Of a stretch of 64,000 nucleotides of DNA, positions 7,786 through 59,319 are shown piece after piece. How positions within the stretch are numbered: position 1 is the stretch's first letter; each line of letters starts with the position of its first letter. This stretch comes from Nitrospirota bacterium (GTDB lineage: Bacteria > Nitrospirota > UBA9217). A program made the position numbers and the translations under genes. The DNA lies in the NCBI GenBank assembly GCA_963751455.1, contig CAVVUN010000015.1:384001-448000 (forward strand), in the 5' to 3' direction. The notes below the pieces were generated by a model. It saw only the letters and a program-made list of their open reading frames with translations, had not been told where the DNA came from and made no database searches.

Positions 7786-7862
7786 AGCATAGGGCATAGC
7801 GCATAGCGTAGAGAATAAGGCAATGATTCTAAACCCTTGCGCCATGCGCTATGCTCTATGCT
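7786..7862. repeat. periodic (7-nt) palindromic intergenic element
   Basis: AGCATAGGGCATAGCGCATAGCG (7786-7808) and CGCCATGCGCTATGCTCTATGCT (7840-7862) form a 21/23 inverted match. Confidence 0.85.
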
Positions 7863-7874
7863 GGAGGTTGTTAT

Positions 7875-8108
7875 ATGGACGACCATCACGAGCATTCACA
7901 CAAGCATGACGAGCAATGCGGCCACGACCATGGGGAGCACGAGCACGGGCTGGTCCCGGTTACGATAGAGCTCGAGGACGAGCATATCCCCGCGCTTGAC
8001 GAGGTTGCGATCGAGCTGACCAGGGAATTGAAGCAGCCGTGGGACCGGGGCGCGGTTGTGCGGCTTGCATTGAGCGAGTTTTTCTCCAGAAGGGGAAAGA
8101 TCACGTAA
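7875..8108 (+). CDS. His-rich ribbon-helix-helix-like small protein
   Basis: SD GGAGG plus ATG at 7875; DDHHEHSHKHDEQCGHDHGEHEHG followed by VTIELED...ALDEVA...RGAVVRLALSEFF. Confidence 0.65.
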   Translation: MDDHHEHSHKHDEQCGHDHGEHEHGLVPVTIELEDEHIPALDEVAIELTRELKQPWDRGAVVRLALSEFFSRRGKIT

Positions 8109-8244
8109 CAAGAAAAAGACCGCTATTCGTTGTGCGGTAAGGAGGCCCGTATCGTCGTTCGGCCAGGAAAACGAACCACGTGTCCGAAACGGGCTTCGTG
8201 GCCGCTTGACGTTCTTTTCGGGCTCGCTAATGTTCAGGAGGCTT

Positions 8245-9123
8245 ATGGCGTACAAGACCATCGGGCAGAAGCAGTATCTTATTGATATCCACGTGCATGG
8301 CGCCGAAAATTATGACACGCGCACGAGAAGACAGGATGATATTCTGAGGATTGCCGACGTTCACGGCGAACGGGGCACCTCCGCCCTGCTGCCGACGATC
8401 TATCCCGGGCCGGTTGAAACGATGCGCGAAAACATGAAAGCCGTGAGGCGCGCCATGGAAATCCAGAGGCACGGCGCTGAGCTGCTGGGAATACACATCG
8501 AGGGACCGTTCCTGAACCCGGAGCGGGCAGGATCCCTTGACGGGAAGAGCTTCATGGACCCCTCAACCGGCGCTCTCGAACTTCTTACCGAGGACTTCGA
8601 GGACATCATAAAAATCGTGACGATTGCCCCGGAACTGCCCGGAGCGCTCAAGGTGATCGAACAATGCCGAGAAAAAGGTTTCCTGGTTCACATGGGACAT
8701 AGTGATGCGTCGTTCGAGCAGGCAGAGGAAGGGAAAAAAGCGGGAGCAACGGGCATAACGCATATTTTTAACGCAATGCGCGGGTTTCATCATCGTGAAC
8801 CTGGCCTTGCGGGGTTCGGTCTAATGGACGAGGACATCTATGTGGAGGTGATCGCGGACATGGCGCACCTTCACCCGCAAAGCTTGAAGATGCTGTTTGA
8901 TATGAAATCGCCGGACAAGATACTCCTCGTCTCGGATTCCGTGAAAGGCCCTGGCTGGGGCAGCGGTCCTATTCGCGGGCCTGGCGGAATGCTCATGGGC
9001 AGCGGTATCGTTCTCGCTGATGCCATGAAGAACCTTGTGACGCTCGGGGTGCCTCTCGAACGAGCGGTTCGGTTCGCATCACAGAACCCGAAACAGTATC
9101 TGGGGCTCGCTGCGGTATCATAA
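8245..9123 (+). CDS. nagA: N-acetylglucosamine-6-phosphate deacetylase
   Basis: IDIHVHG, GIHIEGPFLN, TIAPE, GHSDA, THIFNAM and LVSDS motifs; SD AGGAGG before ATG 8245. Confidence 0.9.
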   Translation: MAYKTIGQKQYLIDIHVHGAENYDTRTRRQDDILRIADVHGERGTSALLPTIYPGPVETMRENMKAVRRAMEIQRHGAELLGIHIEGPFLNPERAGSLDGKSFMDPSTGALELLTEDFEDIIKIVTIAPELPGALKVIEQCREKGFLVHMGHSDASFEQAEEGKKAGATGITHIFNAMRGFHHREPGLAGFGLMDEDIYVEVIADMAHLHPQSLKMLFDMKSPDKILLVSDSVKGPGWGSGPIRGPGGMLMGSGIVLADAMKNLVTLGVPLERAVRFASQNPKQYLGLAAVS

Positions 9124-9156
9124 ATTGAAGCTGCGGATTTCGCCTGACAACTGAAC

Positions 9157-10343: not shown

Positions 10344-10418
10344 CCGCAGATTTCGCAGATTAAAAGCCGGAGCGGACTTTTTTTAAGCCTGAATCTACGC
10401 AATCGGCGCAATCCGCGG
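10344..10418. repeat. periodic (9-nt) palindromic intergenic element
   Basis: CCGCAGATT/TCGCAGATT ... AATCTACGC/AATCGGCGC/AATCCGCGG. Confidence 0.75.
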
Positions 10419-12125: not shown

Positions 12126-12339
12126 CTAGTGTAGCGTCTCACAAACGACTGGTGTTATCATAGCGCGGCAGTAGGCCGCAACCAAACTTGTAGGGCAAGG
12201 CTTTAGCCTTGCTGAAAGCGCCGGAACAGCAGCAACCCTAAAGGGTCGCCCTACAAATTCATCAGCAAATATTTATGCGAAGATAAGTTTTCGATGAGAA
12301 ATCATCATAACACCGTCCATTTAAGAGACACTACACTAG
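12126..12339. mobile_element. IS630-like MITE containing a REP doublet
   Basis: 33-bp terminal inverted repeats (26/33) starting CTAGTGTAGYGTCTC, with CTAG at both ends; no ORF. Confidence 0.75.
12188..12256. repeat. inverted pair of GTAG-type REP sequences (REPIN-like)
   Basis: TTGTAGGGCAAGGCTTTAGCCTTGCTG and, on the reverse strand, TTGTAGGGCGACCCTTTAGGGTTGCTG. Confidence 0.8.
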
Positions 12340-25475: not shown

Positions 25476-25717
25476 CCGCGGATGCACACACCCTTCACTC
25501 GAAATATCGCAATACTTAGACCCTTTGTTGACCATCGCACTAAGAAACGTGTGACGGGAATCAAGGACCGCAGAGACGGGAATCAAGGACCTCATAAACG
25601 CGCCCTGTACTCGCGCTGTGCACTCGTGGCACTGGGTGCAGGCTGGGTGCAGGCGGATGGATGGCCACAGATAATCAATCAAGTTCTCATCCGTGCTAAT
25701 CTGTGTCAATCCGTGGC
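25476..25717. repeat. composite nested palindromic element
   Basis: CCGCGGAT...ATCCGTGG periodic host. An ACCC..GGGTGCAGGC element (25490-25654) sits inside it and itself contains a second copy (25602-25643) and a 17-bp direct repeat. Confidence 0.75.
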
Positions 25718-26744: not shown

Positions 26745-28199
26745 ATGTTTGAACAGTCATTCAAAAACATTGACGACGTCCTCTGGAAAGAGGCCGGCTG
26801 CACCACCGAGCTGGATTATACCGAGCAGACCTCGTGGCTTCTCTTCCTGAAGTACCTCGATGACCTGGAGCAAGATAAGAAGACCGAAGCTGAGTTGGAG
26901 GGTAAGAAATACACCTTCATCCTCGACAAAGACTACCGATGGGAAAGCTGGGCTGCGCCCAAGGGCAAAGACGGCAAACTCGACCATAACAAAGCTCTGA
27001 CCGGAGACGATCTGCGCGACTTTGTGGATCGCAAGCTCTTTCCGTATCTGCACAAGTTCAAGCAGAAGGCAAGCGGACCGAACACGATCGAGTACAAGAT
27101 CGGTGAAATATTCGGGGAGATTAAAAATAAGATTCAGAGCGGCTACAACTTGCGGGAGATCATCGACCACATAGACGAACTGCATTTCCGCTCACAGAAC
27201 GAGAAACACGAGCTGTCAGACCTCTATGAGGCCAAGATCAAGAACATGGGCAATGCTGGCAGGAATGGCGGCGAGTATTACACCCCGCGTCCACTTATCC
27301 GCGCAATCGTTCATGTAATCAAGCCCAAAATGGGAGAGCAGATCTATGATGGCGCTGTCGGATCGGCAGGGTTCTTGTGCGAAGCGTTTGATTATCTCAA
27401 GGCAAAGAAGAACCTGACCACGAAGGACCTCAAAACGCTTCAAGAACGCACCTTTTACGGGAAGGAAAAGAAGTCCCTTGCCTATGTTATTGCGATCATG
27501 AATATGATCCTGCACGGCATCGAAGCGCCGAACATCATCCATACCAACACACTCTCCGAGAATCTTGCCGACATTCAGGAGAAGGACCGCTATGACGTGG
27601 TGCTGGCCAATCCGCCCTTTGGCGGCAAGGAGCGCAAGGAAGTGCAGCAGAACTTTTCGATTCGCACCGGCGAGACCGCCTTTCTCTTCCTTCAGCACTT
27701 CATCAAAATTCTGAAGGCGGGTGGGCGCGGCGGTGTGGTCATCAAGAACACCTTCCTCTCGAACACTGACAACGCCTCGGTGAGTTTGCGCAAGATGCTG
27801 CTTGAAAACTGCAACCTGCAAACCGTGCTCGATTGTCCCGGCGGCACGTTTCAGGGCGCGGGTGTGAAGACCGTGGTGCTGTTCTTTGAAAAAGGCGCGT
27901 CCACCCGCAAGGTCTGGTATTACCAGCTTGATCCCGGCCGCAATCTTGGGAAGACCAACCCGCTCAATGACACCGACCTCGCTGAGTTTGTGAAACTGCA
28001 AAAGACCTTTGCTGACTCGCCCAAGAGTTGGAGCGTTGATACGAAAAACATCGACAAGACAACCTTTGACCTCTCCGTGAAGAACCCGAACGGCGGCGAG
28101 GAAGTAAAGCACCGCAACCCAAAAGAGATTATGAAGGAAATCGCCGCGCTGGATGCAGAGAGCGCGAAGGTGCTGACGAGGATTCGGGAGCTGCTATGA
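26745..28199 (+). CDS. hsdM: type I R-M methyltransferase subunit (N6-adenine)
   Basis: GEYYTPRP, YDGAVGSAGFL and ANPPF motifs. Confidence 0.95.
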   Translation: MFEQSFKNIDDVLWKEAGCTTELDYTEQTSWLLFLKYLDDLEQDKKTEAELEGKKYTFILDKDYRWESWAAPKGKDGKLDHNKALTGDDLRDFVDRKLFPYLHKFKQKASGPNTIEYKIGEIFGEIKNKIQSGYNLREIIDHIDELHFRSQNEKHELSDLYEAKIKNMGNAGRNGGEYYTPRPLIRAIVHVIKPKMGEQIYDGAVGSAGFLCEAFDYLKAKKNLTTKDLKTLQERTFYGKEKKSLAYVIAIMNMILHGIEAPNIIHTNTLSENLADIQEKDRYDVVLANPPFGGKERKEVQQNFSIRTGETAFLFLQHFIKILKAGGRGGVVIKNTFLSNTDNASVSLRKMLLENCNLQTVLDCPGGTFQGAGVKTVVLFFEKGASTRKVWYYQLDPGRNLGKTNPLNDTDLAEFVKLQKTFADSPKSWSVDTKNIDKTTFDLSVKNPNGGEEVKHRNPKEIMKEIAALDAESAKVLTRIRELL

Positions 28200-28858
28200 A
28201 AAAAAATGGGAATAATGAGAACTCTGTGAAAAATGGGAGTCATGGGAGGAAGCCTTCTCATAACTCGCATAATTCCCCTGATTCCCAGCCCTCGATTTTG
28301 CCTCCGAGAGGCGATTATAAGACCTTGCTCTCTTACCAGAAGTCAGAGGTTGTCTATGAAATAACCTACCGCTTTTGTAGCCGATTCCTCGCCAAAGGCG
28401 ACCGCACCATTGATCAAATGGTGCAGGCTGCCCGATCAGGAAAGCAAAACATCATTGAGGGCAGCAAAGCCGCTGTGACTTCAAAGGAGACCGAGATAAA
28501 ACTGACGAATGTCGCGCGTGCAAGCCTGGAGGAATTGCTTGAGGATTATCGGGATTTTCTGCGCGTGCGCGATATGCAGATCTGGGACAAAGACAGCCGC
28601 GAAGCGCTCTATGTCCGTGAGTTGAGCAAGACGACTCCTCTGACGTTTGATGTCTTTCGCGAATTTGTGGAAACCCGCCCAGCAGAGGTCGTGGCCAATA
28701 TCGCCATCTGCCTGATTCACCAGGCCAACTACCTGCTCGACCAGCAACTCAAAGGACTCGAAAAAGCGTTCCTCAAGGATGGCGGCTTGCGGGAACGGAT
28801 GACGCGCGCCCGCCTGCAGATGCGGGATCAGCAGCGCAAAGGGCGGGCAAAGATATGA
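28196..28858 (+). CDS. four-helix-bundle (23S IVP/Avd-like) suffix-domain protein
   Basis: GDYKTLLSYQKS, RTIDQMVQAARSGKQNIIEG, VARASLEELLEDY and FLKDGGLRERMTRAR motifs; ATGA overlaps with both hsdM and hsdS. Confidence 0.88.
   Translation: MKKNGNNENSVKNGSHGRKPSHNSHNSPDSQPSILPPRGDYKTLLSYQKSEVVYEITYRFCSRFLAKGDRTIDQMVQAARSGKQNIIEGSKAAVTSKETEIKLTNVARASLEELLEDYRDFLRVRDMQIWDKDSREALYVRELSKTTPLTFDVFREFVETRPAEVVANIAICLIHQANYLLDQQLKGLEKAFLKDGGLRERMTRARLQMRDQQRKGRAKI
28206..28287. repeat. 9-nt periodic palindrome inside the four-helix-bundle gene
   Basis: Five ATGGGAA-like units at 28206, 28215, 28224, 28233 and 28242, followed by four TTCCCAT-like inverted units. Confidence 0.75.
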
Positions 28859-30702: not shown

Positions 30703-30703
30703 G

Positions 30704-34376: not shown

Positions 34377-34413
34377 CCGGACTTTAGCTTGTAACCACAT
34401 AAAGGTCGGGTCA

Positions 34414-36265: not shown

Positions 36266-36269
36266 AAGC

Positions 36270-48100: not shown

Positions 48101-50154
48101 TATCGGCAAGCGCTACAATCAACGTCTTAAAGGCAATTGCCGCAGTGACCTTAGACAACCTGGGCCATACGTACAACAGCACAGCCAAAAATGCAACAGC
48201 CGCAACAAATCCGGCTGGACTCACGGTCGCGTTCACCTATGATAGTTTGCCTACAGCGCCCACGAACGCCGGGAGCTACACCGTGGTGGGAACAATCGAA
48301 GACGAAAATTACCGGGGCAGCGCCGCCGGCACGATGACCATAGCAAAGGCGACCCCCGACGTGACGACATGGCCTCTGACAAGCGGAATCACATACACGC
48401 AGCAGCTTTCCGCCTCGACGCTGAGCGGCGGCAGCGCATCAATACCCGGCAGCTTTGCCTTCACCGCGCCGTCTACGATACCGAATGCCGGCGCCTACAG
48501 CGCTGCCGTCACATTCACGCCCACTGACGCCGCAAACTACAACACGGTAAACGGCAATGTGATTGTTGAAGTTGCCAGGGCAGACCAGGCAGCGCTGAGG
48601 GTAAGCGCTCCTGCAAGCCTTGCCTACGGAAACACGGCGACCTTGACAAGCAGCGGAGGCAGCGGTACGGGGCTTGTATCGTACAATGTTGGATCCTCGA
48701 CAGGCTGCTCGGTATCCGGCAACGTTGTCACCATTATAGCCGCAACCGGCACCTGTTGGGTAACGGCGGCGAAAGCGGCTGAGAGCAACTACAATGCAGC
48801 CATTTCACCGGCGGTTACCATTGTACCTCAGAAAGCCGGCCAGACGATTACATTCGGCGCGGTTACGGGCAAGATGTACGGAGATGCGCCGTTTATGGAT
48901 CCCGTAAGCTCAAATTCAGGCCTCGCTGTAAGCCTTATCAGCCTTACCGGCGATGTTTGTACGGCAGCCGATAATACCGTTACAATCCATGCTGCGGGAA
49001 CATGCACGCTCGAGGCTTCCCAGGGCGGAAATACGAACTATAATGCCGCACCCATCGTGAAACAGTCTTTCACGGTTGCCAAGGCCAACCAGGCTATCAC
49101 CTTCGGTTCGCTCCCCGGCAAGACAGTCGGAGACCCGGACTTCGCCCCAGGCGCTACGGCCAGCTCGGGGCTTCCGGTCTCCTACGCGAGCTCGCTCACG
49201 CAAATAGCGACGATCGTGGACGGAAACATTCATATATTGAAACCGGGGACAACGACGATCATTGCGTTCCAGGACGGTGACATGAATTATAACGCAGCGC
49301 CAAGCGTACAGCAGAGTTTTACGGTAAGTAACATAGCATCATTCATCGGCGGCGGCACGGGGGGGCGTGGTCGTTCTCATTGGCTAACATGGAGCGGGGA
49401 CCCATCGAGGGATAATACGATCAATTTTTACACTAAATTACTTTGCCCGTATGGCGACGCCTGTTCTTATAACTGGAACTTCGGCGATCCGGACTCGGGT
49501 CCGGCAAATACAACGACAGGGAGAACCGTCTTCCATACATTCAGCAGTTTCGGCACTTATAAGGTGATATTGAGTGTTACTGATGGCAGCAGGAGCCATA
49601 TGTACACTACTTCGGTATTCGTTAATACGAAACCGCTGGTGTCTCATGGTCCGATAACTACAGATCTCTATACCATAAGCTTTATTGACAAATCTTTATC
49701 CACAGATGGTGTAGCTCTGCCGAATAATGCAGTTACCGTATTTTGGGGGGACGGTGCGGTCTCACGGCAGAATGCGGGCACTGTTTTCACGCATACCTAC
49801 AAAAAGGCAAGAAAATTCAACGTCCTCCATACCGTGACCGACTCGGGAGATGAGCAGGGTCGAAGGAAGTTGAGGACTATCGAGAGGATAATGGTGTCGG
49901 TGCCCCAGAAGTTTACTGTGGAGGGGACTGTCAGCAAGAGAGGTGAAGGTCTTCCCCACGTGATTGTGTCGCTCACGTATAACGGGCGTACAAGGGCCAC
50001 TGCGAGGACAGATGCAAGCGGTAATTACATTTTCAAGAATGTTCTGCCGGGTGTGTATACGATAAAGGCATACAAGTATAACACGACCTTCTCGGACTTG
50101 CCGGATTCCATCACCGTGAATGCGGGTACGATATTAAACTTTACCGCACAATAG
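39181..50154 (+). CDS. giant (3657 aa) secreted S8 subtilase with Ig-like/MBG repeat stalk, PKD and carboxypeptidase-regulatory-like C-terminal domains
   Basis: Signal peptide and propeptide; catalytic VAVLDTG / NGHGT / GTSAS; about 19 two-Cys 85-aa repeats and other Ig-like modules; WNFGD and VFWGDG PKD motifs. Confidence 0.9.
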   Translation: MKIISLIYPRKSGWNHGRSITLIILVALLSLGAVFVPSAEASDETASLLVKMKNGLSPQEQAAVISRNGGTEKSSIPALRLHVVQIPANVLSTALSSYQFDSQVERAEINQTRKSEAMPSDPRYNEQWALPQISWDQVYGSVTTSGTATVAVLDTGIDASHPDLSGVLVPGTSILDLSTGMTDSNGHGTWMAGIIAAVPNTEGIAGVAFSGVRVMPVAVLGEDGTGWDSDIIAGVMYAADHGADVILMGFSNPGFSQGLQDAIDYAWSKNAVLVAATGNDRSGTPTYPAGDRGVVGVSATNAEDILADFSNYGEDAFLAAPGTNILTTNLTGTYTPYTPVTGTSASAAIVAGVAAFMRAVDPSLTNGVIVGRLAGTADPAGSENQTGNGRVNMARAVSSTATESIQPVGIPGGGPILGPYVAGALVLRNVTLGSQNGTLASGTPGSVTFALTVTKVGGSGNAALTVTTPLPAGTSVSFSPDPLVFLDNGNYTETCTLTISTLSSTAASTTTFTLQTAASNAVTATGTLTIVKGTPIITWANPDNITYGTPLGDTQLNASASVSGTPSVPGSFSYTPAGGTVLSAGSGQGLHADFSPAEPNNYNTASADVQINVLKAPATVTLGNLSQTYDGTARNATATTSPEGLNVTFTYNGLSIAPNNAGTYTVIGTINETNYAGSATGTMIIDMVTPSVTTWPTASGITYGQPLSASSLTGGSASVSGSFAFTVPTTAPDAGAYSAAVTFTPTDTTNYNLVSGSVEVAIARANQETLLVIAPGTLTYGTTATLSSSGGSGNGAVSYSAGSSTGCSVSGSTLFVNNASGDCMVTATKAGDANYNEATSSAATVALQKASQATVALIAPAILTYGTTTTLSSSGGSGTGAVSYSVGSSTGCSASGSTLSVTNASGDCMVTATKAGDSNFNEASSSAATVALQKASQATVAIIAPGILTYGTTTTLSSSGGSGTGAMSYSVGSSTGCSVSGSILSVKNASGDCMVTATKAGDSNFNEASSSAATVALQKASQATVALIAPAILTYGTTTTLSSSGGSGTGAVSYSVGFSTGCLVSDSVLSVTNASGDCMVTATKAGDSNFNQASSSASTVMLQKAIPIVTAWPTASGITYGEALSLSTLTGGSPLVPGSFAFTSPSFIPNAGTYSASVSFTPADTTNYNIVYGSVYVVVAKVTPSVTTLPTASQITYGQQLSASTLTGGSASVSGSFAFTVPTTAPDAGAYSAAVTFTPTDTTNYNLVSGSVEVAIARANQETLLVIAPGTLTYGTTATLSSSGGSGNGAVSYSAGSSTGCSVSGSTLSVNNASGDCMVTATKAGDANYNEATSSAATVALQKASQATVVLIAPAILTYGTTTTLSSSGGSGTGAVSYSVGSSTGCSASGSTLSVTNASGDCMVTATKAGDSNFNEASSSAATVALQKASQATVAIIAPGILTYGTTTTLSSSGGSGTGAMSYSVGSSTGCSVSGSILSVTNASGDCMVTATKAGDSNFNEATSSAAAVALQKADQETLLVLAPGILTYGTTTTLSSSGGSGTGAVSYSVGSSTGCSVSGSILSVTNASGDCMVTATKAGDSNYNETSSSPATVSLQKAGPIVTTWPTASGITYLQPLSASTLTGGSASVPGSFAFSTPTMTPTAGTYSAPVNFTPTMEYRTNYTTVSGSVNVAVARADQEVLTINAPPTLAYGSTATLTTMGGSGTGVISYSTGSSTGCSVSGSILSVTDASGTCSITATKAGDVNYNEITSEQATVSLKRSNQQTLTIIAPGTLTYGTTATLSSSGGSGTGAVSYSVGSSTGCSISGSTLSVTNASSTCSVIAMKAADADYTEATSSAATVVLQKANQATLSAIAPGILTYGTTTALTSSGGSGTGAVSYSAGSSTGCSVSGSTLSVNNASGDCMVTATKAGDSNFNEASSSAATVTLQKANQATLLAVAPGILTYGTTATLSSSGGSGTGAVSYSVGSSTGCLVSGSVLSVTNASGTCMATATKAGDSNFNEASSSAATITLQKAEQQTLLVIAPETLTYGNTATLTSSGGSGTGAVSYSAGSSTGCSVSGSILSVTDASGTCSVTATKSVDNNYNAVASSSATITLQKAIPIVTAWPTASGITYGQQLSASTLSGGSASVPGSFAFAAPSTIPNAGVYSAEVTFTPMDTINYNTVIGTVNVTVARADQATLLVIAPGTLTYGSTASLTINGGSGTGVVSYSVGSSTGCSVSGSILSVTNASGTCMVTASKAADSNYNAAASSPATVSLLKADQTALLVISPASVTYGSTATLTSSGGSGMGAVSYSAGSSTGCSVSGSILSVTNAGGTCSITATKAGDPNYNEASSLAATVMLRKANQAALAVIAPGSLTYGTTTALTSSGGSGTGAVSYSAGSSTGCSVSGSTLSVTNASATCMATATKAGDSNYNEASSLPATVTLQKANQETLLVIASATLVYGNTSGLMSSGGSGDGAVTYSAGSSTGCSVSGGILSVTNAGGTCSITATKAGDPNYNEASSSAATVTLQKAEQQTLLVIAPETLTYGNTATLTKSGGSGTGAVSYSAGSSTGCSVSGSILSVTDASGTCTVTATKAGDTNYNTITSPEDTISLQKATPTVTIWPLASGITYGQQLSASTLTSGSGSIPGNFGFTTSATAPNAGIYSAAVTFTPTDMTNYLTVTGYVYVAVARATPTITWNNPADITYGTALAGAELNAAASVPGTLIYTPAAGVVLTAAGNQTLSVNFTPIDTSNYNVASATVRINVLKAAATVTLGNLSRIYDTTARNATGTTDPAGLTIAFTYNGSATPPINAGSYTVVGTIEDTNYQGSTTGTMTIAKATPTVTTWPLAGEITYTQRLSASTLSGGSASAPGSFAFAAPSTMPNAGVYSAAVAFAPMDTINYNTVSGSVDITVSKATPVLTWNNPGDITYGAALGGAQLNATASVPGSFIYTPAAGTVLPAGNSRTLSAEFTPSDTSNYDTVSASATINVLKAIAAVTLDNLGHTYNSTAKNATAATNPAGLTVAFTYDSLPTAPTNAGSYTVVGTIEDENYRGSAAGTMTIAKATPDVTTWPLTSGITYTQQLSASTLSGGSASIPGSFAFTAPSTIPNAGAYSAAVTFTPTDAANYNTVNGNVIVEVARADQAALRVSAPASLAYGNTATLTSSGGSGTGLVSYNVGSSTGCSVSGNVVTIIAATGTCWVTAAKAAESNYNAAISPAVTIVPQKAGQTITFGAVTGKMYGDAPFMDPVSSNSGLAVSLISLTGDVCTAADNTVTIHAAGTCTLEASQGGNTNYNAAPIVKQSFTVAKANQAITFGSLPGKTVGDPDFAPGATASSGLPVSYASSLTQIATIVDGNIHILKPGTTTIIAFQDGDMNYNAAPSVQQSFTVSNIASFIGGGTGGRGRSHWLTWSGDPSRDNTINFYTKLLCPYGDACSYNWNFGDPDSGPANTTTGRTVFHTFSSFGTYKVILSVTDGSRSHMYTTSVFVNTKPLVSHGPITTDLYTISFIDKSLSTDGVALPNNAVTVFWGDGAVSRQNAGTVFTHTYKKARKFNVLHTVTDSGDEQGRRKLRTIERIMVSVPQKFTVEGTVSKRGEGLPHVIVSLTYNGRTRATARTDASGNYIFKNVLPGVYTIKAYKYNTTFSDLPDSITVNAGTILNFTAQ
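41240..43680 (+). repeat. recent internal duplication (1482-bp offset) plus 255-bp tandem units
   Basis: ~41240-42200 is nearly identical to ~42722-43680; shadow ORFs recur every 255 bp. Confidence 0.85.
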
Positions 50155-50220
50155 GTTCATTCGCACATATTTTTATAGCCAAGAGAACTCATTGCCTATG
50201 CGGCTTGCGCTTTGCGCCCC

Positions 50221-51228
50221 CTATTCCCACCTGAAAATGTAGGAACCGACCGACAGAAAAAGCGCCGACATAACGAGCAGTATCCAGATGTGCGGAGCGA
50301 TTTCGGCAAGTCCCGCTCCTTCCGTCATGACGGCCCGGGCGCCGTCCACAAGGTGGGTCAGCGGCAGGAACCACGCAATTTTTGCCACGATCGGGTTCGT
50401 GCCTTCCAGAGAGAACCATACCCCCGAGAGCAGCATCATGGGCCATGTGATTACGTTCAGAATGCCGTTTGCAAGCTCTTCACTCGAGAACCGCGCTGCC
50501 ACGAGCAGGCCCAGGCAAATCAGGCATATCGCGCCTGCAACGGAGATGAGCAGCAGGTCCATGTACGAACCGCGCATCTGGAAATGGATAAAGTAATTGC
50601 ATCCTGCGTACACGCCCGCTGCCACGATCTGCGTCAGCAGAAGCCGCGACACCATCTGGGCGAGCAGAAATTCGAACGGGGTCAGCGGCGTTGCCTTGAG
50701 CCTCTTCAGGAAGCCGTTCTTGCGGTATCTCACGATCACGTAGCCGACGCCGAACAGACAGCTGAACATCATATTCATGGCGAGGATACCCGGGACGACC
50801 CAGTCGACGTAGCGTATCTCGCGTCCGCGCACGGTAAACCGCCGGTATTCCGAATGGGACGCCCCATTGAGCAGGCGTTCCAGCACATACCCGTTCGGGG
50901 AATTTTCATTGATCCAGTACCGTTTGACGCCTTGCACGTCCACGAGCATGTCGAGTTGGAAATGCTCCACCTTGTCGACCGCCTTCTCGAGGTTCTCGAC
51001 CGGGATGAATTGAATATACTGCATTTGCAAAAATGAAGAGTCGCGGCCCGTTACGGCCGCCCGATCGCCGACAACTCCGACCTTGAACATGGCTTTCGGC
51101 GGACCGCTGAAAACGAAGGCAAAGCCCAGCACGAGCAGGACCGGGAAGACGACGCTCCAGCCGAACGTGGACCTGTCGCGGAGAAACTCCATGTTGCGCG
51201 CGTGCAGTATGGCGAGAAAACGTTTCAT
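50221..51228 (-). CDS. ABC-2 type exporter permease
   Basis: YVDWVVPGILAMN, LKRLKATP, LSGVWF and LPLTHLVDGAR motifs. Confidence 0.9.
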   Translation of the reverse strand: MKRFLAILHARNMEFLRDRSTFGWSVVFPVLLVLGFAFVFSGPPKAMFKVGVVGDRAAVTGRDSSFLQMQYIQFIPVENLEKAVDKVEHFQLDMLVDVQGVKRYWINENSPNGYVLERLLNGASHSEYRRFTVRGREIRYVDWVVPGILAMNMMFSCLFGVGYVIVRYRKNGFLKRLKATPLTPFEFLLAQMVSRLLLTQIVAAGVYAGCNYFIHFQMRGSYMDLLLISVAGAICLICLGLLVAARFSSEELANGILNVITWPMMLLSGVWFSLEGTNPIVAKIAWFLPLTHLVDGARAVMTEGAGLAEIAPHIWILLVMSALFLSVGSYIFRWE

Positions 51229-51247
51229 GCTAACCTCGTAATCAATC

Positions 51248-51504
51248 AGCCACACCCCGCACTCGCGCAGAATGCACTCCTTGCGCCGGGTGCAGGCGGA
51301 TGGACACGGATCGACTGGGATGAGGACCGAGAATCCGGTTTGCCGCGAATGATCTCGAATAAAAGCGAATTAATTGTGAAATCATGAATTACTTTGAGAA
51401 CTTTGCAGTTGTTTTCTTTTCATCTTTTATTCGCGAATATCCGCGTTCATTCGCGGCATGGTAGTTTTCGCTTTTATCCGTGTATTTCAGTGTTTATCCG
51501 TGGC
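51248..51504. repeat. composite nested palindromic element between ABC genes
   Basis: Outer CCAC..GGATGGACACGGAT/ATCCGTGG arms, inner GCCGCGAAT/ATTCGCGGC arms, and a 44-bp ACCC..GCAGGC insertion at 51254-51297. Confidence 0.8.
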
Positions 51505-51956
51505 AAAAAAGAATTTAGCTTCTTAGTCCTTTTCCCGTCAATGCAATGAACAGGTCCTCAAGGCTCCAGGAGCGCATATTCATCCGGTTCAGTGAGACGC
51601 CCCGTTCGATAAGCGTCCTGATTGTTCCGTCCACATCGTTCGTCTGGATTTCGCACCAGCCCAATGCACTCCTTGCGCCGGGTGCAGGCGGATGGACACG
51701 GATGAGGACCGAGAATCCGGTTTGCCGCGAATATCCGCGTTCATTCGCGGCATGGTAGTTTTCGCTTTTATCCATGTATTTCAGTGTTTATCCGTGGCAA
51801 AAAAGAATTTAGCTTCTTAGTCCTTTTCCCGTCAAGGCAATGAACAGGTCCTCAAGGCTCCAGGAGCGCATATTCATCCGGTTCAGTGAGACGCCCCGTT
51901 CGATAAGCGTCCTGATTGTTCCGTCCACATCGTTCGTCTGGATTTCGCACCAGCCC
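51271..51956. repeat. imperfect tandem duplication (392 bp + 294 bp) including the 3' end of the ABC ATPase
   Basis: 51271-51662 versus 51663-51956; the second copy lacks 10-bp and 88-bp segments and differs by 2 SNPs. Confidence 0.88.
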
Positions 51957-52693
51957 GCCTGCTTTGAAACGCAGAGACCGAGTCCCTCAAACTTCCCGTT
52001 GAGATCCTGCTCGGGAAACTCGAGCACGATGTTTCCGAAATGCTCCTTCAGCAACCGCTCCGGTGTGCCCTGCGCGACGATCTTCCCGCGGTCCATGATC
52101 GCTATTTCATCGCAGAGCGTATAGGCCTCGTCCATGTAGTGGGTTGTCAGTACGATTGTTTTATTTCTCGATTTTATGAGATTAATGAGGTCCCAGAAAT
52201 TGCGGCGTGACTGGGGATCCAGTCCGGTCGTCGGCTCGTCGAGAAACAGAATTTCAGGATCGTTGATGATCGCAACCGCCATGAGCAGCCGCTGCCGCTG
52301 CCCGCCAGAAAGCTTTTTGGTGTCGCGGTCAAGAAATTCCTCGAGAGAGCAGAGGCGGATCACGTCGTCGAGTTCCAGTGTCCTGGGGTACAGGTTCTTG
52401 AAGAGCTTCAGCGTCTCGCGGACGGTCAGAAATTCCTGGAGCGCGGTGACCTGGAACTGGATGCCGGCTTCCCTGCGAAATTGCGGGCCCTGCGGAGCGC
52501 CTTTGTAAAGAATGACGCCTGAATCAGGAGATTTGATGGCTTCCATCATCTCGATGACGGTCGTTTTTCCGGCGCCGTTCGGCCCGAGCAGGCCGAAGCA
52601 TATTCCCTGCCTGATGCTCAGGGTCAGCCCGTCGACTGCGCGGACGCCGGGATACAGCTTGACCAGATTTTTCACCTCGATTACGGGAACCAT
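51809..52693 (-). CDS. ABC transporter ATP-binding protein
   Basis: GPNGAGKT, LSGGQRQR, LDEPT and TTH motifs. Confidence 0.95.
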   Translation of the reverse strand: MVPVIEVKNLVKLYPGVRAVDGLTLSIRQGICFGLLGPNGAGKTTVIEMMEAIKSPDSGVILYKGAPQGPQFRREAGIQFQVTALQEFLTVRETLKLFKNLYPRTLELDDVIRLCSLEEFLDRDTKKLSGGQRQRLLMAVAIINDPEILFLDEPTTGLDPQSRRNFWDLINLIKSRNKTIVLTTHYMDEAYTLCDEIAIMDRGKIVAQGTPERLLKEHFGNIVLEFPEQDLNGKFEGLGLCVSKQAGWCEIQTNDVDGTIRTLIERGVSLNRMNMRSWSLEDLFIALTGKGLRS

Positions 52694-52827
52694 GACTTGA
52701 AACTACCACGAGGGGGTTGATACTGTCAAGCCGGGGAAATAATGGTCTTGAGTCAAGGTCGATATTCGTGTAAAGTAGCCCATAGTTGCTTTGGCGTTTT
52801 ATAGCTGCGAGCTCCTGCTTTGTCAAG

Positions 52828-52938
52828 CCGCGGATGGACACACCCTGCACTTGCGACGGAGCACGCCTCAACGCTGGGTGCGGGCTGATGGTCGCGGACT
52901 GATCCATTTTATCCGTGTAATCCGTGTAAGTCCTGGGC
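52828..52938. repeat. periodic palindrome with nested 44-bp element
   Basis: CCGCGGATGGACAC[ACCCTGCAC...GGGTGCGGGC]TGATGG...ATCCGTGTAATCCGTGTAAGTCC. Confidence 0.78.
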
Positions 52939-52961
52939 AGCTTGCGAATGGACAAACATTC

Positions 52962-53384
52962 ATGATCCAAGTTACAAGAACTATAGCGATTGACGAAAAC
53001 GAAATGGAGTTCCATTTTGTCCGTGCCTCCGGTCCCGGCGGCCAGAATGTGAATAAGGTGTCGAGCGCGGTCCAGCTTCGGTTCGATGTCGGAAATTCTC
53101 CTTCCCTGCCCGGTGACGTGAGAACCCGGCTTATCCGCCTGGCCGGCAGACGAATCACCCAGGACGGGATCCTGATCATCGAAGCCCGACAGCACCGCAC
53201 GCAGGAGCGAAACAGGGAAGACGCAATTGAACGGCTGGTTGACCTGGTACGGAAAGCAGCCGAAAAGCCGAAGCCGCGCAAAGCGACCAGGCCTTCGAAA
53301 GCGGCAAAGGAACGGCGGATAGAGACCAAGAAACTGAGGGGAGCAGTCAAAAAAACCCGCAGAAGCGCAGGATATAGTGAATAG
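52962..53384 (+). CDS. arfB: alternative ribosome rescue peptidyl-tRNA hydrolase
   Basis: RASGPGGQNVNKV, RTQERNR and basic tail KPRKATRPSKAAKERR. Confidence 0.95.
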   Translation: MIQVTRTIAIDENEMEFHFVRASGPGGQNVNKVSSAVQLRFDVGNSPSLPGDVRTRLIRLAGRRITQDGILIIEARQHRTQERNREDAIERLVDLVRKAAEKPKPRKATRPSKAAKERRIETKKLRGAVKKTRRSAGYSE

Positions 53385-53517
53385 CATTGGTCGGTTTTCA
53401 CCAATAATTAACGAAAAAAATGAATAAAACTTGTCTCACGCGGAGCCGCGGAGGTCGCGGAGAATACAAATCTTGTTTGTTTCACTGTGTCCCGGTGGCA
53501 GGTACTTCTAATTCCCT

Positions 53518-54247
53518 ATGGCCCTTCCATGGCATACAATAGAAAAGGTTAATACGCGCGACGGGGTTCTCGAGCTTCGGCAGCGCGCGGAGCGCGATTT
53601 TTTGATCCTTATCAACAACCGGGTGCTGATGAACAGCAGCTCCAACAGGTCCGAGATCGCGCTGGGGGAGTCGGCATGCAAGGCCGTGCGGGAGCGTCCC
53701 GGTCCGCGCGTGCTCATTGGCGGACTCGGCATGGGGCTGACACTGAGAGCGGCTCTCGACTGCCTTCCGGCAAAGGCGCAGGTCATTGTAGCGGAGCTGA
53801 ATCCTGTAGTTCTCGACTGGTGCCGGGGACCGCTCGCGGCGCTTACGAACGGCGCGGTGAAGGACCCGAGAGTCGTGGCTGTAAGCAAGGATGTTTCGGC
53901 TGTGATACGACAGGCAGCATTGCACCGGTCCGGGCAATTCGACTCAATTATCCTCGACCTTTATGAAGGCCCTCATACAGGAACAGACCCGAGGCATGAT
54001 CCCTTTTACGGAACAGGCGCCTTGAACAAGGCCTCCGCCGCGCTGAATGCCGGAAGGAGTTTTGGCGGTTTGGGGCGAGAGTATTGACAAAGGCTTCGAG
54101 GCGCGCCTGGCTACTGCGGGATTTTCCGTCATGACCGACAGGCCGGGAAAGGGCGGGCTGCGCCACGTCATATATATCGCAAAGAAGCCTCTTAAAACGG
54201 GGAATGTTTTTTTGAAGGAGGCGCACACACTATATGATTCTCGATAG
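53518..54247 (+). CDS. spermidine synthase-like methyltransferase (frameshift near 54056)
   Basis: [15 protein letters not shown] and FDSIILD; continues GVLAVW in the shifted frame. Confidence 0.82.
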
Positions 54248-55028
54248 GAAACTTATTGTGATAATGCCTGCCTATAATGCGGAGAAGACGCTCCGCCAGA
54301 CGCATGCCGAACTGCCCCATGAATATGTAGATGAGGTCATTCTGGTTGACGACGCATCCCGAGACGCTACCGCAAAAGTCGCGGCTGAACTCGGCATCAA
54401 GACGATAATCCATCGGCAAAACAAGGGCTACGGAGGCAATCAGAAGACCTGTTATCGTGAAGCGCTCAGGCACGGCGCGGACATCGTTGTCATGGTCCAT
54501 CCGGACTACCAGTATTCTCCGCGGCTCGTGACAGCAATGGCTTCCATGATTGCCTCGGAGCATTACGATGTTGTGCTCGGGTCGCGGATTCTCGGCGGCA
54601 CGGCGCTCAAAGGCGGAATGCCGCTGTACAAATATATCGCAAACAGATTCCTGACGCTGTTCGAGAATATCGGCCTCGGCGTCAAGCTCTCCGAGTATCA
54701 TACCGGGTTCAGGGCATTCACCCGGGAGGTGTTGGAAACCTTGCCGCTTGAGGAGAACTCCGATGATTTTGTTTTCGACAGCGAGATGCTCGTTCAAGCC
54801 GTTTATTTCGGCTTTAGAATCGGAGAACTGAGTTGTCCCACGAGATACTTCCGGGAAGCGTCTTCTATTAATTTCAGCCGGAGTGTCAAATACGGTTTCG
54901 GAGTGCTGGGCAGTACAATGAAGTACGTGATTGCCAAATCCGGCATGAAAAAATTTATGATTTTTAACAGCGAGGGCGGGAAACTGTCCTCAGCGAAGGA
55001 AAAGCTGAAGCGGAGCGCTCCCTGTTAA
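54234..55028 (+). CDS. GT2 glycosyltransferase (DPM1-like)
   Basis: [28 protein letters not shown] and EYHTGFRAF motifs. Confidence 0.92.
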
Positions 55029-55047
55029 AACACGCAAGAGTAATTGA

Positions 55048-56961
55048 ATGGCATTGGTAAGTTTACAGAATGTAAAGGTAAGCTTCGGCGGACCGCTTCT
55101 GCTCGAAGGGGTGGATCTCTCCATCGACCGCGGCGAGCGGGTCTGTCTCGTCGGCAGGAACGGCACGGGCAAATCCACGATCCTGCGCCTGATCACCGGC
55201 GAGGTGAAGCCGGACGGCGGCAAGATCGTGTTTCAGCAGGGCGTGCGAATCACGCTTCTGACGCAGGAAGTGCCGCATGACATTCCGGGGAAGCGTGTTC
55301 GATGTCGTGTCGAGCGCCTTCGGCGAGCAGGGGAAGCTGCTTGCCGCGTACCATCATGTGAGCGCCAGGCTGGCCCATGACCACAGCGAGAAGCTGATGG
55401 CCGAGCTCGAGGATGTGCAGCACAAGTTCGAGTCAGCCGGCGGCTGGCAGATGCAGCAGCGGGTCGAGGAGATCCTGACGCGGCTGCAGCTTCCCGAGGA
55501 TGCCGAGTTCTCCGAGCTTTCGGGCGGCCTCAAGCGCCGGGTGCTGCTTGCAAAGGCGCTGGCCGGAGCGCCGGACCTTTTGCTCCTCGACGAGCCCACG
55601 AACCATCTCGATATCGATTCCATTGCCTGGCTCGAAGAATTTCTGCTTTCCTTCGGCGGCACCCTGCTTTTCGTGACCCATGACCGGGCGCTGCTTCAGA
55701 AGCTCGCGACCCGGATCGTGGATCTTGACCGCGGCCGGCTCACGAGCTGGCCCGGAAGCTACCAGGCCTATCTCGAGCTCAAACAGGCGGCGCTCGATGC
55801 CGAGGCGGTGGAGAACGCGAAGTTCGACAAGAAGCTTGCTGCGGAAGAGGTCTGGATCAGGCAGGGGGTCAAGGCGCGCCGCACCCGGAACGAAGGCCGC
55901 GTGCGGGCGCTCAAGGAACTGCGCAGGGTCAGGAGCGAACGGCGGGAGGTGACCGGCACCGCGCGCATGCAGATGCAGGAGGCGGAGCGCACCGGCAAGC
56001 TGGTGATCGAGGCGACAAAGGCTAAGCCACGGCTACGGGGAACGGCAGGTTATCCGCGATTTTTCAACGACCATCATCCGCGGAGACAAGATCGGCATCA
56101 TCGGGCCGAACGGTGCGGGCAAGACCACGCTCCTCAAAATTCTTCTCGGCGAACTGAAGCCGCAGAAGGGCACGGTGAAGCACGGAACGAACCTCGAGGT
56201 CGCCTATCTCGATCAGCACCGGGAGCAGCTTGACGACGAGAAGACGGTGCAGGACAACGTGGCCTTCGGCAGCGATCACGTCACCATCAACGGAAACCGG
56301 CGGCATGTGATCGGCTATCTGCAGGACTTTCTGTTCGCGCCCGCCCGGGCGCGAAGCCCGGTAAAGGTCCTGTCCGGCGGAGAACGGAACCGGCTGCTGC
56401 TCGCCCGGCTCTTCACCAAGCCGTCGAACGTGCTCGTGCTCGACGAGCCGACAAACGACCTGGACATCGAGACCCTGGACCTGCTCGAAGAGCTGCTCAT
56501 GGAGTATCCGGGCACGGTGCTGCTCGTGAGCCACGACCGCGCGTTCATCAACAACGTCGTAACCAGCACGCTGGTGCTCGAAGGCGAAGGCAGGGTGAAC
56601 GAATACGTGGGCGGGTATGACGACTGGCTGCGCCAGAGCAGGAACAAGAGAGAAGCCGCTGCAGATCCTGCGCGGAATGAGGAAAAAAAAGGCGTCTTGC
56701 CGGTTCCTCAAAAAGAAAAGCCCCGCAAGCTGACCTTCAAGGAGCAGAAAGAGCTCGATGCGCTGCCGAAGCGCATCGAAGAGCTTGACGCAGAGCAGCA
56801 AAAGATCATTGCGGTCATGGCTGATCCGGCTTTTTACCGTGAAAGCGGCAAGAAGGTTTCCGAGATTCAAGGCGAGGCTCGAGCAGGTGGAAAAAGAGCT
56901 TGCCGCGGCGTATAAACGGTGGGAGGAGCTTGAGGCTGTGGGTAAGAACGAGAAAAGTTGA
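55048..56961 (+). CDS. uup: ABC-F family ATPase Uup (three frameshifts)
   Basis: Two NBDs (GRNGTGKS/LSGG/DEPTNHLD and GPNGAGKT/LSGGE/DEPTNDLD), WIRQGVKARRTRNEGRVRAL linker and C-terminal YKRWEELE. Confidence 0.9.
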
Positions 56962-57169
56962 GCCACTTTTTAACCACGGATGAACGCGGATAAAAACTTG
57001 AGTTAGGTTCTGTCAGTCACAATCCGCCTGCGCTCAGCGTTTATGAATTCCTTGATTCCAGGACGAGCCACAACGATATGAAACATTCACGCAAAAACCT
57101 TTGCGCGCTCCTCCCCGCCTGGAAACAGCTTGCCTCTAGGCGCGGGCACAAGAGATACGGAGGCTGACC

Positions 57170-58948
57170 GTGGAAAAGAAACGAGAGAACATAAAGCCGC
57201 GCCATTCAGACCCGCCAGCGGAAAAAGTGAAACCTGAAAAAGACCGCTCCAGGCACGTGCTTGCCGGAATTGTTTCAGCACTCACCTTTCTTGTATACCT
57301 TGCGTCGCTGTGGAACGACTTTGTACTCTGGGATGACGACAGGTATGTTTACGAAAATGAGTTTATTCGGTCATTTGATAGGGATTTCTTAAAGCGGGCG
57401 TTCCTTGATTTCTACTCCGGTAACTGGCATCCGCTCACGTGGATTTCGCATGCTCTCGATTACGCGGTGTGGGGCTTAAATCCTCTGGGGCATCATTTGA
57501 CCAACAACGTGCTCCACGCGATGAATACCTATCTGGCAGTATTGCTCACGATCAGCCTGGCAGTGAAATACGGGGAACGGGCGACAGCAAACGGAACATC
57601 CCTGTTCCGGGATAAACGAAGCATATTGATTTTAGGAGGTGTTACGGGTTTATTGTTCGGTCTTCACCCGCTGCATGTCGAATCAGTAGCATGGGTTTCA
57701 GAACGGAAAGATCTTTTATGCGCTTTATTTTACCTGCTCAGCATCTATAGCTATCTGGCGTATGCGGGCTCTCTTGGCAGCGAAACAGTAAAAAAGACAG
57801 GATTAGCACAATACTTCAACAAGCACTATGTATTTGTCATCGGCTTCTTCATTCTTGCGTTACTCAGCAAGCCGATGGCGATAACGCTGCCTGTTGTTTT
57901 GGTTGTTCTGGATTGGTATCCGCTTTCTAGAATTCAGTCTTTTAAATCATTCCAGGGCGTCCTCATCGAAAAAATTCCCTTTATAGCGTTGAGTCTTGTC
58001 TCGTGTGTCCTGACTGTTCTGGCGCAAAAAGCGGGCGGGGCTTTAAGTACAGTTGTTATGGCGTTTGAGCCCTTGTCATCACGGCTTGCTCTGGCTGCCA
58101 AATCTCTTCTCTCGTATCTCTGGATGATGATTTTGCCGCTCGACCTGATTCCTCTTTATCCTTATCCGATGAAGATAGCGCCTTTATCATTTGAATACCT
58201 CGCGCCTGCAGTTCTTGTAATTGCCATAACGGTAATCTGCGTGGTCTATGTAAAGAAGCAGAAATTCTGGCTGGCCGTCTGGGGTTATTATATAATAACC
58301 TTGCTCCCGGTTATCGGCATTGTTCCGGTTGGAATTCAGGCAATGGCCGACAGATATACGTATTTGCCGAGTATCGGTCCATTTCTGATTGCGGGCTTAC
58401 TCGCATCATGGGTCTCGAAAAGAATGGATGCCGTAAAAAACAGAGGGATCCTTATCAAGATTGCGCGTGCAGCGGCAGCCCTGGTTATTGTCGTTCCGAT
58501 GACATACCTTACATTCGAACAGATCGCGGTATGGAGAAACAGTATTGCTCTCTGGAGTCATGTCATAGAAATAGAACCTGTGAAAGCGCCTACAGCCTAT
58601 GGAAATAGAGGTGTCAGCTTTACCGAAATCGGTGACTTGAATAAGGCGCTTGAGGACTATAACAGGGCAATTGTTCTCGACCCGTTCTATACCGGTATTT
58701 ATTTCGAACGAGGTCTCGTTTTTGCCGAGATGCGTCAATTCGATAAGGCAGTAGCAGACTTCGATAAGGCAATTACGCTGGATCAATATGGCGCGAAGAG
58801 CGACGTCGGCGTGCAATTTTACTTCCTTCATCGGGGGCTTGCATACCTGGAAATGCAGCAGCCCGGACCTGCCGTCTCTGATTTTAAGCATGCCTGCGAG
58901 CTCGGGAGCAACAAGGCGTGCACTGCTTTGCAAACCTTACCGAACTAA
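57170..58948 (+). CDS. GT-C fold multi-TM glycosyltransferase-like protein with C-terminal TPRs (TMTC-like)
   Basis: DFVLWDD, NWHPLTWISH, HPLHVESVAWVSERKD, LLSKP and ADRYTYLP motifs, followed by TPR repeats. Confidence 0.85.
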   Translation: MEKKRENIKPRHSDPPAEKVKPEKDRSRHVLAGIVSALTFLVYLASLWNDFVLWDDDRYVYENEFIRSFDRDFLKRAFLDFYSGNWHPLTWISHALDYAVWGLNPLGHHLTNNVLHAMNTYLAVLLTISLAVKYGERATANGTSLFRDKRSILILGGVTGLLFGLHPLHVESVAWVSERKDLLCALFYLLSIYSYLAYAGSLGSETVKKTGLAQYFNKHYVFVIGFFILALLSKPMAITLPVVLVVLDWYPLSRIQSFKSFQGVLIEKIPFIALSLVSCVLTVLAQKAGGALSTVVMAFEPLSSRLALAAKSLLSYLWMMILPLDLIPLYPYPMKIAPLSFEYLAPAVLVIAITVICVVYVKKQKFWLAVWGYYIITLLPVIGIVPVGIQAMADRYTYLPSIGPFLIAGLLASWVSKRMDAVKNRGILIKIARAAAALVIVVPMTYLTFEQIAVWRNSIALWSHVIEIEPVKAPTAYGNRGVSFTEIGDLNKALEDYNRAIVLDPFYTGIYFERGLVFAEMRQFDKAVADFDKAITLDQYGAKSDVGVQFYFLHRGLAYLEMQQPGPAVSDFKHACELGSNKACTALQTLPN

Positions 58949-59019
58949 GTTCGCAGCATCGGCGAACTTTGTGAATACCTTAAAAAAGGCCCCTACCGCA
59001 TAAGAAATACCCCTTGATG

Positions 59020-59128
59020 AATCCCGCGACTTGCAATCCCCCGGCTCCTGCCGGGGGTAATGCGCCGTAGTCCGCGGGAGGTCGCGTTATTAAAGGGAGC
59101 CTCCGGCTCCTGCCGGAGGGGGCTCCAC
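59020..59128. mobile_element. small palindromic non-autonomous element (IS200/IS605-end-like), copy B
   Basis: Same termini as 34474-34623; two CCGGC-TCCT-GCCGG hairpins. Confidence 0.72.
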
Positions 59129-59319
59129 TACCCCGCCCCGTTGTTCGAATCCTGGGAAGCGTACTTTTGTCGAATTGATATAATTTCAGGCAGCGGTATC
59201 GTTTAAGAAGAAAATATTTTTTGAATTGGGATATAAAACCGCAGATTCGCAGATTTCGCCGATAAAAAAGGGTCCGAAATCTGCGGGATAAATATTTGTT
59301 ATAAATCAGGAGATAAGAC

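Follow-up and report, generated by a model that had tools for sequence, protein, structure and literature searches.

The window considered here is a 64,000-nt stretch of the forward strand of a Nitrospirota genome (GenBank assembly GCA_963751455.1, contig CAVVUN010000015.1, positions 384,001 to 448,000); it contains nine sites at which short tandem units are followed, across a spacer, by the same units in inverted orientation, and a small gene of the four-helix-bundle type set between hsdM and hsdS. The periodic hairpins formed by these units belong to a family that is a real, widespread and barely described feature. Their unit words are not arbitrary: there are three arm classes, each bracketing one family of small genes, and the same junctions occur empty, with a hairpin of another class, or with a full cassette, in which the arms enclose a gene. 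An earlier note on this DNA had regarded the elements as defined by structure rather than sequence; what is found here instead is a small number of classes, distinct in sequence and period, and every class goes with a single protein family. In the window, the class of the GxxExxY genes, whose units mostly fit CRCRRAK, accounts for six sites, a 7-nt class for one (at 7786), and the class of the four-helix-suffix gene described below for one (at 28206).

The units named by the earlier note are present at all nine sites, where it had placed them (sites are referred to here by their first position), and its proposal of a single hairpin design holds for part of the set. Each site was tested individually by comparing arm complementarity with 100 dinucleotide shuffles; the arm score exceeds the shuffles at five sites, with p=0.01 for each of 7786, 51248, and 59239, p=0.02 for 10344, and p=0.04 for 28206, but not at the four remaining sites, which are decayed or interrupted (25476, p=0.13; 52828, p=0.30; 56972, p=0.36; 53434, p=0.50). 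Exact CRCRRAK units persist at these four weak sites, at 53434 and 56972 in the left arm only. When the transcribed strand is folded, only 7786, 51248, and 59239 have clearly low z-scores (-9.0, -4.9, and -4.0, respectively); those of the other six sites lie between -1.9 and -0.3. The suggested periodicity of 7-9 nt is real, but the observed range is 7-10 nt. As had been noted, most sites (seven of nine) lie between co-oriented genes, the exceptions being 52828, between a divergent pair, and 28206, inside an open reading frame (ORF). No Rfam family matches within the window.

The clearest of the gene-less hairpins, and the only window site that passes the strict genome detector described below, is the GCATAGC hairpin of the 7-nt class at 7786..7862, whose arms (7786-7808 and 7840-7862) are 91% complementary; it follows the stop codon of a gene for an AEC-family transporter and precedes the next ribosome-binding site. 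Two sites carry CGCAGAT units of the GxxExxY class: 10344..10418, a gene-less hairpin with a decayed right arm (z -1.4) whose neighbors are a GGDEF gene and a radical-SAM gene, and 59239..59286, which is part of the 5' untranslated region of a gene for an F420-type oxidoreductase, downstream of a promoter-like site (59175-59202) and upstream of the ribosome-binding site. Three further sites do contain the CRCRRAK units attributed to them but proved to be composites, in each of which an arm has been invaded by a GC-rich palindrome of ~44 nt. The first of these, 25476..25717 (CGCGGAT/CACAGAT), at the junction of an Rsm22-like methyltransferase gene with greB, is broken by nested repeats, with the palindrome at 25602-25643. 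The second, 51248..51504, consists of an outer CACGGAT hairpin, which the palindrome has entered at 51254-51297, and, in the spacer of this hairpin, an inner one of CGCGAAT units (51341-51458); a duplicate of 51271-51536 with an internal deletion, absent from the earlier list and read from the sequence, follows at ~51663-51830. The third, 52828..52938, upstream of arfB, has the palindrome inserted at 52842-52885; taken by itself it is not significant (p=0.30). The last two sites are best described as left arms of the CRCRRAK class: three CGCGGAG units after arfB at 53434..53499, with the right arm decayed, and CACGGAT and CGCGGAT units at 56972..57045, with the right side disrupted by a palindrome remnant.

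The ninth site belongs to a gene. The four-helix-bundle suffix gene (TIGR04258 above the cut-off; TIGR02436) occupies 28196..28858 on the plus strand, with ATGA overlaps at both ends, between hsdM and hsdS. The earlier view that it had inserted into the operon is borne out by orthologous loci (84-88% hsdM identity), in which hsdS lies directly 3' of hsdM in 8 of 11 cases by tblastn (9 by eye); of the remaining loci, one has a different, gene-less 7-nt hairpin between the two genes and one is ambiguous. The same six bases stand at both ends of the insert, which translational coupling could explain equally well. The hairpin assigned to the 5' end of this gene (28206..28287, plus strand, ATGGGAA class, 9-nt period) indeed lies inside the 5' end of the ORF and, read in frame, forms the low-complexity N-terminus of the protein. 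The structural model of the protein (predicted local distance difference test, pLDDT, 92) has its best fold matches in 2GSC and 2RLD, both of the S23p family (Foldseek E 0.07-0.3); a sequence search of the PDB with alignments of the four-helix-suffix and GxxExxY proteins returned nothing below E 0.2. The interval 26745-37928 is a defense cluster with an EcoEI-like type I restriction-modification system, an NYN-domain gene, and an AbiEi/AbiEii pair.

A genome-wide scan for tandem-unit inverted repeats, which the earlier note had proposed as a check, gave counts far above chance. The strict detector is sequence-agnostic and requires periodic, inverted arms with a gap of <120 bp; it returned 297 pairs, against 7 for the mirror-repeat control, and a relaxed CRCRRAK scan returned 356 versus 6 bins of 150 bp. 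The left arm is purine-rich in 268 of the 297 pairs. Gene positions outside the window come from a simple in-house gene caller, whose starts are often late, and distances to start codons were left unused; in this annotation 246 pairs lie between co-oriented, 31 between convergent, and 16 between divergent genes, 3 lie inside genes, and 1 at a contig edge. Divergent gaps are under-used (16/293 hairpins versus 484/3500; p=1e-5). Intrinsic termination was rejected: of 201 hairpins, 24 are followed by a U-tract on the transcribed strand and 17 on the opposite one, and within 50000-60000 of the window a single weak terminator-like match overlaps a site, at 59239, on the non-coding strand. A pyrimidine-purine-purine motif common to the 7-nt units (79/81) was also dropped, as it had no control and is expected in most purine-rich 7-mers.

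The same arms surround genes. The genome has 9 PF05635 and 10 PF13366 matches, which resolve into 16 loci; by eye, a periodic arm immediately precedes the gene at all eight GxxExxY loci and is matched by its inverse immediately after it, and three of five short four-helix loci are bracketed likewise, a fourth being cut by another element. Cassettes in relatives were taken as the best-scoring hit per genome in 30 relatives per family, which is not a random draw, and one four-helix locus with a short flank was dropped. Inverted arms bracket 26 of 29 four-helix genes (mirror control 2), with period 7 in 23 of the 26, and 27 of 30 GxxExxY genes (mirror control 0), with period 8-10 in 25 of the 27 and units mostly fitting CRCRRAK; an association with four-helix-bundle and GxxExxY genes is supported. 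Among 79 four-helix-suffix homologs with enough flank, 38 have bracketing arms (mirror controls 3) and 20 have a 5' hairpin like that at 28206-28287 (mirror controls 0); the period of this class is 9 in 38 of 44. In a tree of 28 GxxExxY proteins the arm word tracks the clade, and a single clade is found at both nuoH-nuoI and nuoE-nuoF; since the word follows the clade and the clade occupies different junctions, protein and arms travel together. The four-helix protein proposed earlier as the partner of the hairpins is indeed associated with such arms, but six of the nine window sites are of the GxxExxY class and not of that of the neighboring four-helix gene.

Filled and empty versions of the sites, and replacements of one class by another, occur at orthologous junctions in relatives. 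At the 7786 junction, inspected by eye in 29 relatives, 4 are empty (21-27 bp), 5 carry the window's class, 5 carry CGCAAAG, 2 CAC(A/G)GAG, and 2 another 8-nt word, while 11 are decayed or other. The 25476 junction is short (roughly 30-75 bp) in 15 of 25 syntenic relatives, and the 59239 hairpin was found in none of the 140-nt upstream regions of 29 relatives. At atpA-atpG and atpG-atpD, compared in 30 relatives, many junctions have a 7-nt hairpin directly after the stop codon, with a word that differs even within a genus; atpA-atpG is empty in two (15 and 18 bp). Well-supported sister pairs show how fast this can change: at 94.5% atpG identity a hairpin faces a 15-bp empty site, and at 92% and 97.5% identity the unit words differ. 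Conversely, of 21 junctions that hold a cassette in a relative, 2 hold one in this genome as well, 5 have a strict gene-less hairpin, and ~6 more have decayed hairpins (by eye); others are plain gaps, such as the bare 12 bp at nuoH-nuoI. Polymorphism among relatives, association with protein families, and behavior other than that of plain terminators were thus all found.

The atp junctions also bear on a regulatory interpretation, in which the stems would be host-useful processing or stabilization sites that tune operon stoichiometry, possibly bound by four-helix or GxxExxY proteins, with interchangeable classes because structure alone matters. Control of operon stoichiometry by stem-loops reportedly has precedent (PMC4423207), some hairpin is present at many atp junctions of relatives, and the depletion between divergent genes would fit; a regulatory role has also been proposed for Beggiatoa heptamers in the available part of PMC4679880. 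However, sister genomes lack a hairpin at the same junction, wobble pairs show no strand bias (below), the arms tolerate insertion of the palindrome and of a transposable element, and the arrival of new classes is left unexplained. Regulation by the host is accordingly regarded as rather improbable.

Secondary parasites exploit the hairpins. The commonest hairpin (CGCAGAT) is carried by a miniature inverted-repeat transposable element (MITE) of 157-172 bp with 12-bp terminal inverted repeats beginning GTAA; 44 of 48 MITE end pairs contain the hairpin, 35 of 48 have a perfect 8-bp duplication, and one 69-bp copy is without the hairpin, which identifies the hairpin as cargo of the MITE. The same ends bound single-ORF IS66-family (PF03050) elements in metagenomes and are also present in relatives. 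The sole high-copy subfamily (44 copies) has therefore spread as cargo of an IS66-type MITE. The element at G000:C9:162404, the one full IS66 transposase of this genome, could not be established as the mobilizer, as its ends differ from those of the MITE at 3-4 of 12 positions. MITEs stand at G000:C2:320777-320944 and 47 other sites, and one has broken up the four-helix cassette that lies between uvrC and a gene resembling that of inositol monophosphatase (both named from the sequence). The second parasite is the ~44-nt palindrome, which inserts into arms: it has 84 genome copies, of which 45 lie beside arm units versus 15% of random intergenic positions. Its copies, like those at 25602-25643, 51254-51297, and 52842-52885, prefer periodic arms and other hairpins and leave no obvious duplication; a further small repeat family (window 25530-25600; 7 near-full-length copies and 68 partial matches) is nested with the palindromes.

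These observations invite the view that the hairpins are ordinary non-autonomous elements of known transposases, i.e., IS66 MITEs or REPINs moved by RAYT proteins, or else intrinsic terminators. The 44 hairpins within IS66-type ends flanked by 8-bp duplications, and the 33 Y1 transposase matches of the genome, would agree with it. Against it, the MITE carries only 55 of the 297 strict hairpins and none of the window's sites, the U-tract counts do not separate the strands, and Y1 genes occur in 37 of 45 genomes with hairpins and in 13 of 15 without; since the presence of Y1 is unrelated to that of hairpins across 60 genomes, a Y1/RAYT transposase was rejected as the partner. For the family as a whole this explanation is refuted, with hardly any likelihood left to it, and it is valid for the MITE-borne subfamily only.

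The link between hairpins and cassettes is well supported. Shared periodic inverted arms, together with the turnover at orthologous junctions, indicate that the hairpins are likely gene-less derivatives of cassettes. In addition, among 60 genomes of the family, 43 of the 47 with a GxxExxY match contain exact gene-less CRCRRAK hairpins, compared with 2 of the 13 without, and the quality of the atp-junction hairpins increases with the number of four-helix genes (rho 0.62, n=30). The interpretation favored here, which is given an even chance, is that the cassettes are selfish passengers of operon junctions resembling the intervening sequences (IVSs) of 23S rRNA, and that the hairpins are their gene-less derivatives, probably maintained or moved in trans by cassette proteins.

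The proteins suggest how this might work. GxxExxY (PF13366, E 1e-41) is a predicted PD-(D/E)XK nuclease with an intact D...E-x-K motif: D63, E73, and K75 are invariant in 28 proteins with PD-(D/E)XK spacing, and the model (pLDDT 96) most resembles Cas4, lambda exonuclease, and Hjc/Holliday-junction resolvases (Foldseek E 0.004-0.02). A cassette would insert downstream of a stop codon or promoter and ahead of the following ribosome-binding site. Its arms would pair in the transcript to give a long irregular stem with the gene looped out, and RNase III, whose gene is present in the genome, would clip this stem as it does in the IVSs of 23S rRNA, so that the insertion would stay nearly harmless. 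Deletion of the gene would leave the hairpin behind. The GxxExxY nuclease may then cut extruded hairpin or cruciform DNA, starting excision or insertion, while the non-catalytic four-helix proteins may bind their own arms and require a host enzyme.

A number of points weigh against this interpretation. The 60 genomes are related and partly incomplete, and four-helix and GxxExxY genes have mostly been lost together; as a result, the co-occurrence p-values are overstated and not class-specific. All Foldseek E-values for both proteins exceed 0.001. Wobble pairs give no significant strand bias, G-U versus A-C being 190:165 on the transcribed strand (p=0.20) and 27:20 and 19:19 on cassette strands; pairing of the arms at the RNA level is therefore unsupported here, and the RNA-processing role entertained in the earlier note gains no support from these counts. 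Of 333 hairpins, 250 have no spacer twin, multi-copy hairpins mostly sit in larger units, and 52 of 56 copies of the commonest spacer lie inside the MITE; because high-copy hairpins ride in MITE or composite units, copy number is no evidence of self-mobility. Target duplication is unreadable at the nine window sites except for the 6-bp repeat around the hsd insert. No protein or ORF remnants were found in gene-less hairpin spacers (gap <300 bp), and no cassette gene was found at any atp junction examined in the 30 relatives. Seven of the 16 cassette loci of this genome are broken, two by internal deletion with both arms retained; this is consistent with decay, but the assembly also has split housekeeping genes, so that some of the broken loci may be assembly frameshifts. 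At G000:C9:376636-377073 the repeats on the two sides of a four-helix gene, which are long, periodic, and rich in purines, run in the same orientation, in contrast to the inverted arms at the other loci; the repeat word recurs as an inverted hairpin at G000:C15:1673479. At atpA-atpG no co-conversion was seen, flank identity being 0.751 versus 0.741 and 0.898 versus 0.889 in same- and different-class pairs, at genus-level distances that may be too coarse for the comparison. Finally, mobilization by any cassette protein, including action on hairpins in trans, is a step that we infer.

Several of these points would suit passive scars, in which each hairpin is what remained of an inserted cassette after loss of its gene and has been inert since, with cassette-bearing genomes simply having younger scars. 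The deletion intermediates keep both arms, relatives hold cassettes where this genome has hairpins, spacers are mostly unique, and co-occurrence would follow without activity in trans. Yet hairpins are about twenty-fold commoner than cassettes (297 versus 16), the atp junctions are without a cassette despite quick class swaps, the spacers contain no ORF remnant, and there is a three-copy family, with related spacers, whose copies, in unrelated loci, stop where the arms end. Scars of this kind are considered unlikely. The freely variable unit copy number, the mostly unique spacers and the lack of co-conversion of flanking genes could likewise mean that the hairpins arose in place, without any protein partner, through replication slippage and template switching, and slippage is proposed for heptamers in the accessible part of PMC4692102. 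This rival is largely refuted and retains a very small likelihood, as the same few words recur across genomes and agree with the arms of particular families and clades of proteins, and where no such genes were found the hairpins are absent or in decay.

A bolder extension of the favored interpretation is a transposase-free mobile system of many bacterial phyla, in which the PD-(D/E)XK nuclease and two four-helix families would each recognize their own periodic word in DNA or RNA and transfer units delimited by arms, whether or not they contain a gene, into the space between a stop codon and the next ribosome-binding site, displacing the resident hairpin. This is put forward tentatively and appears somewhat doubtful.

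Among known systems, one of the closest is the 23S rRNA IVS with its S23p (PF05635) protein; in the example from Coxiella, an S23p ORF is accompanied by heptamer repeats and by a stem of 28 bp that RNase III cuts, according to the available portion of PMC4990558. As far as the partly available sources describe IVSs, these share with the cassettes a four-helix ORF in a loop between terminal inverted repeats, heptamer repeats in the arms, and a sporadic distribution. Terminal inverted repeats surround the four-helix ORF in 26 of 29 cassettes, a likeness confined to cassettes and not extending to gene-less hairpins. Heptamer arms (period 7 in 23 of 26) are found in four-helix cassettes, the other two classes having periods of 8-10 nt, and the modeled fold of the window protein is predicted to be most like Xcc0516 (2GSC) and BT_0352 (2RLD). 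Unlike IVSs, the window sites and flank-mapped cassettes lie at junctions of protein genes and not in rRNA, two more protein families have arm classes of their own, and gene-less hairpins are in excess about twenty-fold.

REPINs are hairpin doublets tied to RAYT transposases (PMC3116915; GTAG/CGTC repetitive extragenic palindromic (REP) sequences, PMC3733652; both in available part). In these sources, as here, many intergenic hairpins have conserved arms and variable spacers and a few genes are flanked by the same arms, and in this genome the 297 pairs are likewise inverted doublets in extragenic DNA (3 inside called genes). The arms in this genome are non-palindromic tandem words of 7-10 nt, in contrast to REPs, which are described there as palindromic and GTAG/CGTC-tagged, and the partner genes, which are present in many copies and at sites that change, encode a predicted PD-(D/E)XK nuclease or helical bundles and not an HUH transposase. 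The two RAYT-like loci inspected have unrelated terminal repeats; these are near-identical RAYT-like Y1 genes (G000:C1:555331-556135 and C15:1291594-1292494) within long terminal inverted repeats edged by short tandem words.

Intergenic heptamers have been described in Xanthomonas and Nostoc, often as inverted pairs in Xanthomonas (70-75 convergent pairs per genome) and read as G-quadruplexes (PMC4692102), and in Beggiatoa as TAACTGA repeats for which the part available gives no mechanism (PMC4679880). To judge from those parts, these repeats also are tandem, lie between co-oriented genes, and are near stop or start codons; the roles proposed there are G-quadruplex or translational ones, with no four-helix or GxxExxY partner named, and 'four helix' and 'S23' are absent from the main text of PMC4679880 as available. 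A further difference is that several classes coexist here, including periods of 8-10 nt. Likeness to an IS66-family MITE is confined to the 44-copy CGCAGAT subfamily, the window sites being without such terminal repeats. The Avd protein (accessory variability determinant) of diversity-generating retroelements, which we take to be related to the four-helix family, shares the four-helix-bundle fold class. No Avd structure is among the fold matches listed for the window protein, however, and, unlike in such a retroelement, the gene is flanked by hsdM and hsdS, with no reverse transcriptase in the 49 window ORFs scanned (the rest of the genome was not searched). In the open-access literature no work was found that connects arms of this periodic, inverted kind with GxxExxY genes or, outside rRNA, with four-helix genes. 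The system works most like a hybrid of IVS and REPIN yet fails membership of both; that it is categorically new, should protein-driven mobility hold, is a possibility entertained with reserve.

Other features of the window are recorded for completeness. A 113-bp GC-rich, sharp-ended repeat at 59017-59130, unrelated to the periodic hairpins, has 16 near-full-length genome copies and copies of 84-95% identity in other genera of the family, and 12126-12339 is a MITE-like element whose terminal inverted repeats are imperfect and 36 bp long and which has a GTAG-type palindrome in its interior (12185-12259). The ORF at 39181-50154 (3657 amino acids) contains about 16 tandem repeats of 85 amino acids (255 bp) and probably encodes a surface protein. 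One ORF at 61948-62475 matches both an RNA recognition motif and ribosomal protein S21, and may be a fusion or two genes read through. The genes at 21224-23907 (CHASE3-PAS-GGDEF-EAL) and 55063-56915 (ABC-F, Uup-like) are split over several frames, as pseudogenes or by assembly frameshifts.

What this genome adds is the co-occurrence of hairpins and genes at the level of whole genomes and the filled and empty pairs at the window's own sites, together with a warning that ordinary hitchhiking on a MITE can produce high copy number. The finding joins two puzzles, abundant intergenic hairpins of 7-10-nt repeats and the very common S23p four-helix and GxxExxY genes of unknown function, and the pairing of classes offers for each protein a specific candidate substrate that can be tested. 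That hairpins are exchanged so quickly at the junctions of core operons (atp, nuo, and hsd) points to one of two things: movement of DNA by an unrecognized route, or mRNA processing with a plug-in layer. If true, transposase-free mobility would explain the long-noted intergenic heptamer repeats and would give the S23p and GxxExxY families a function.

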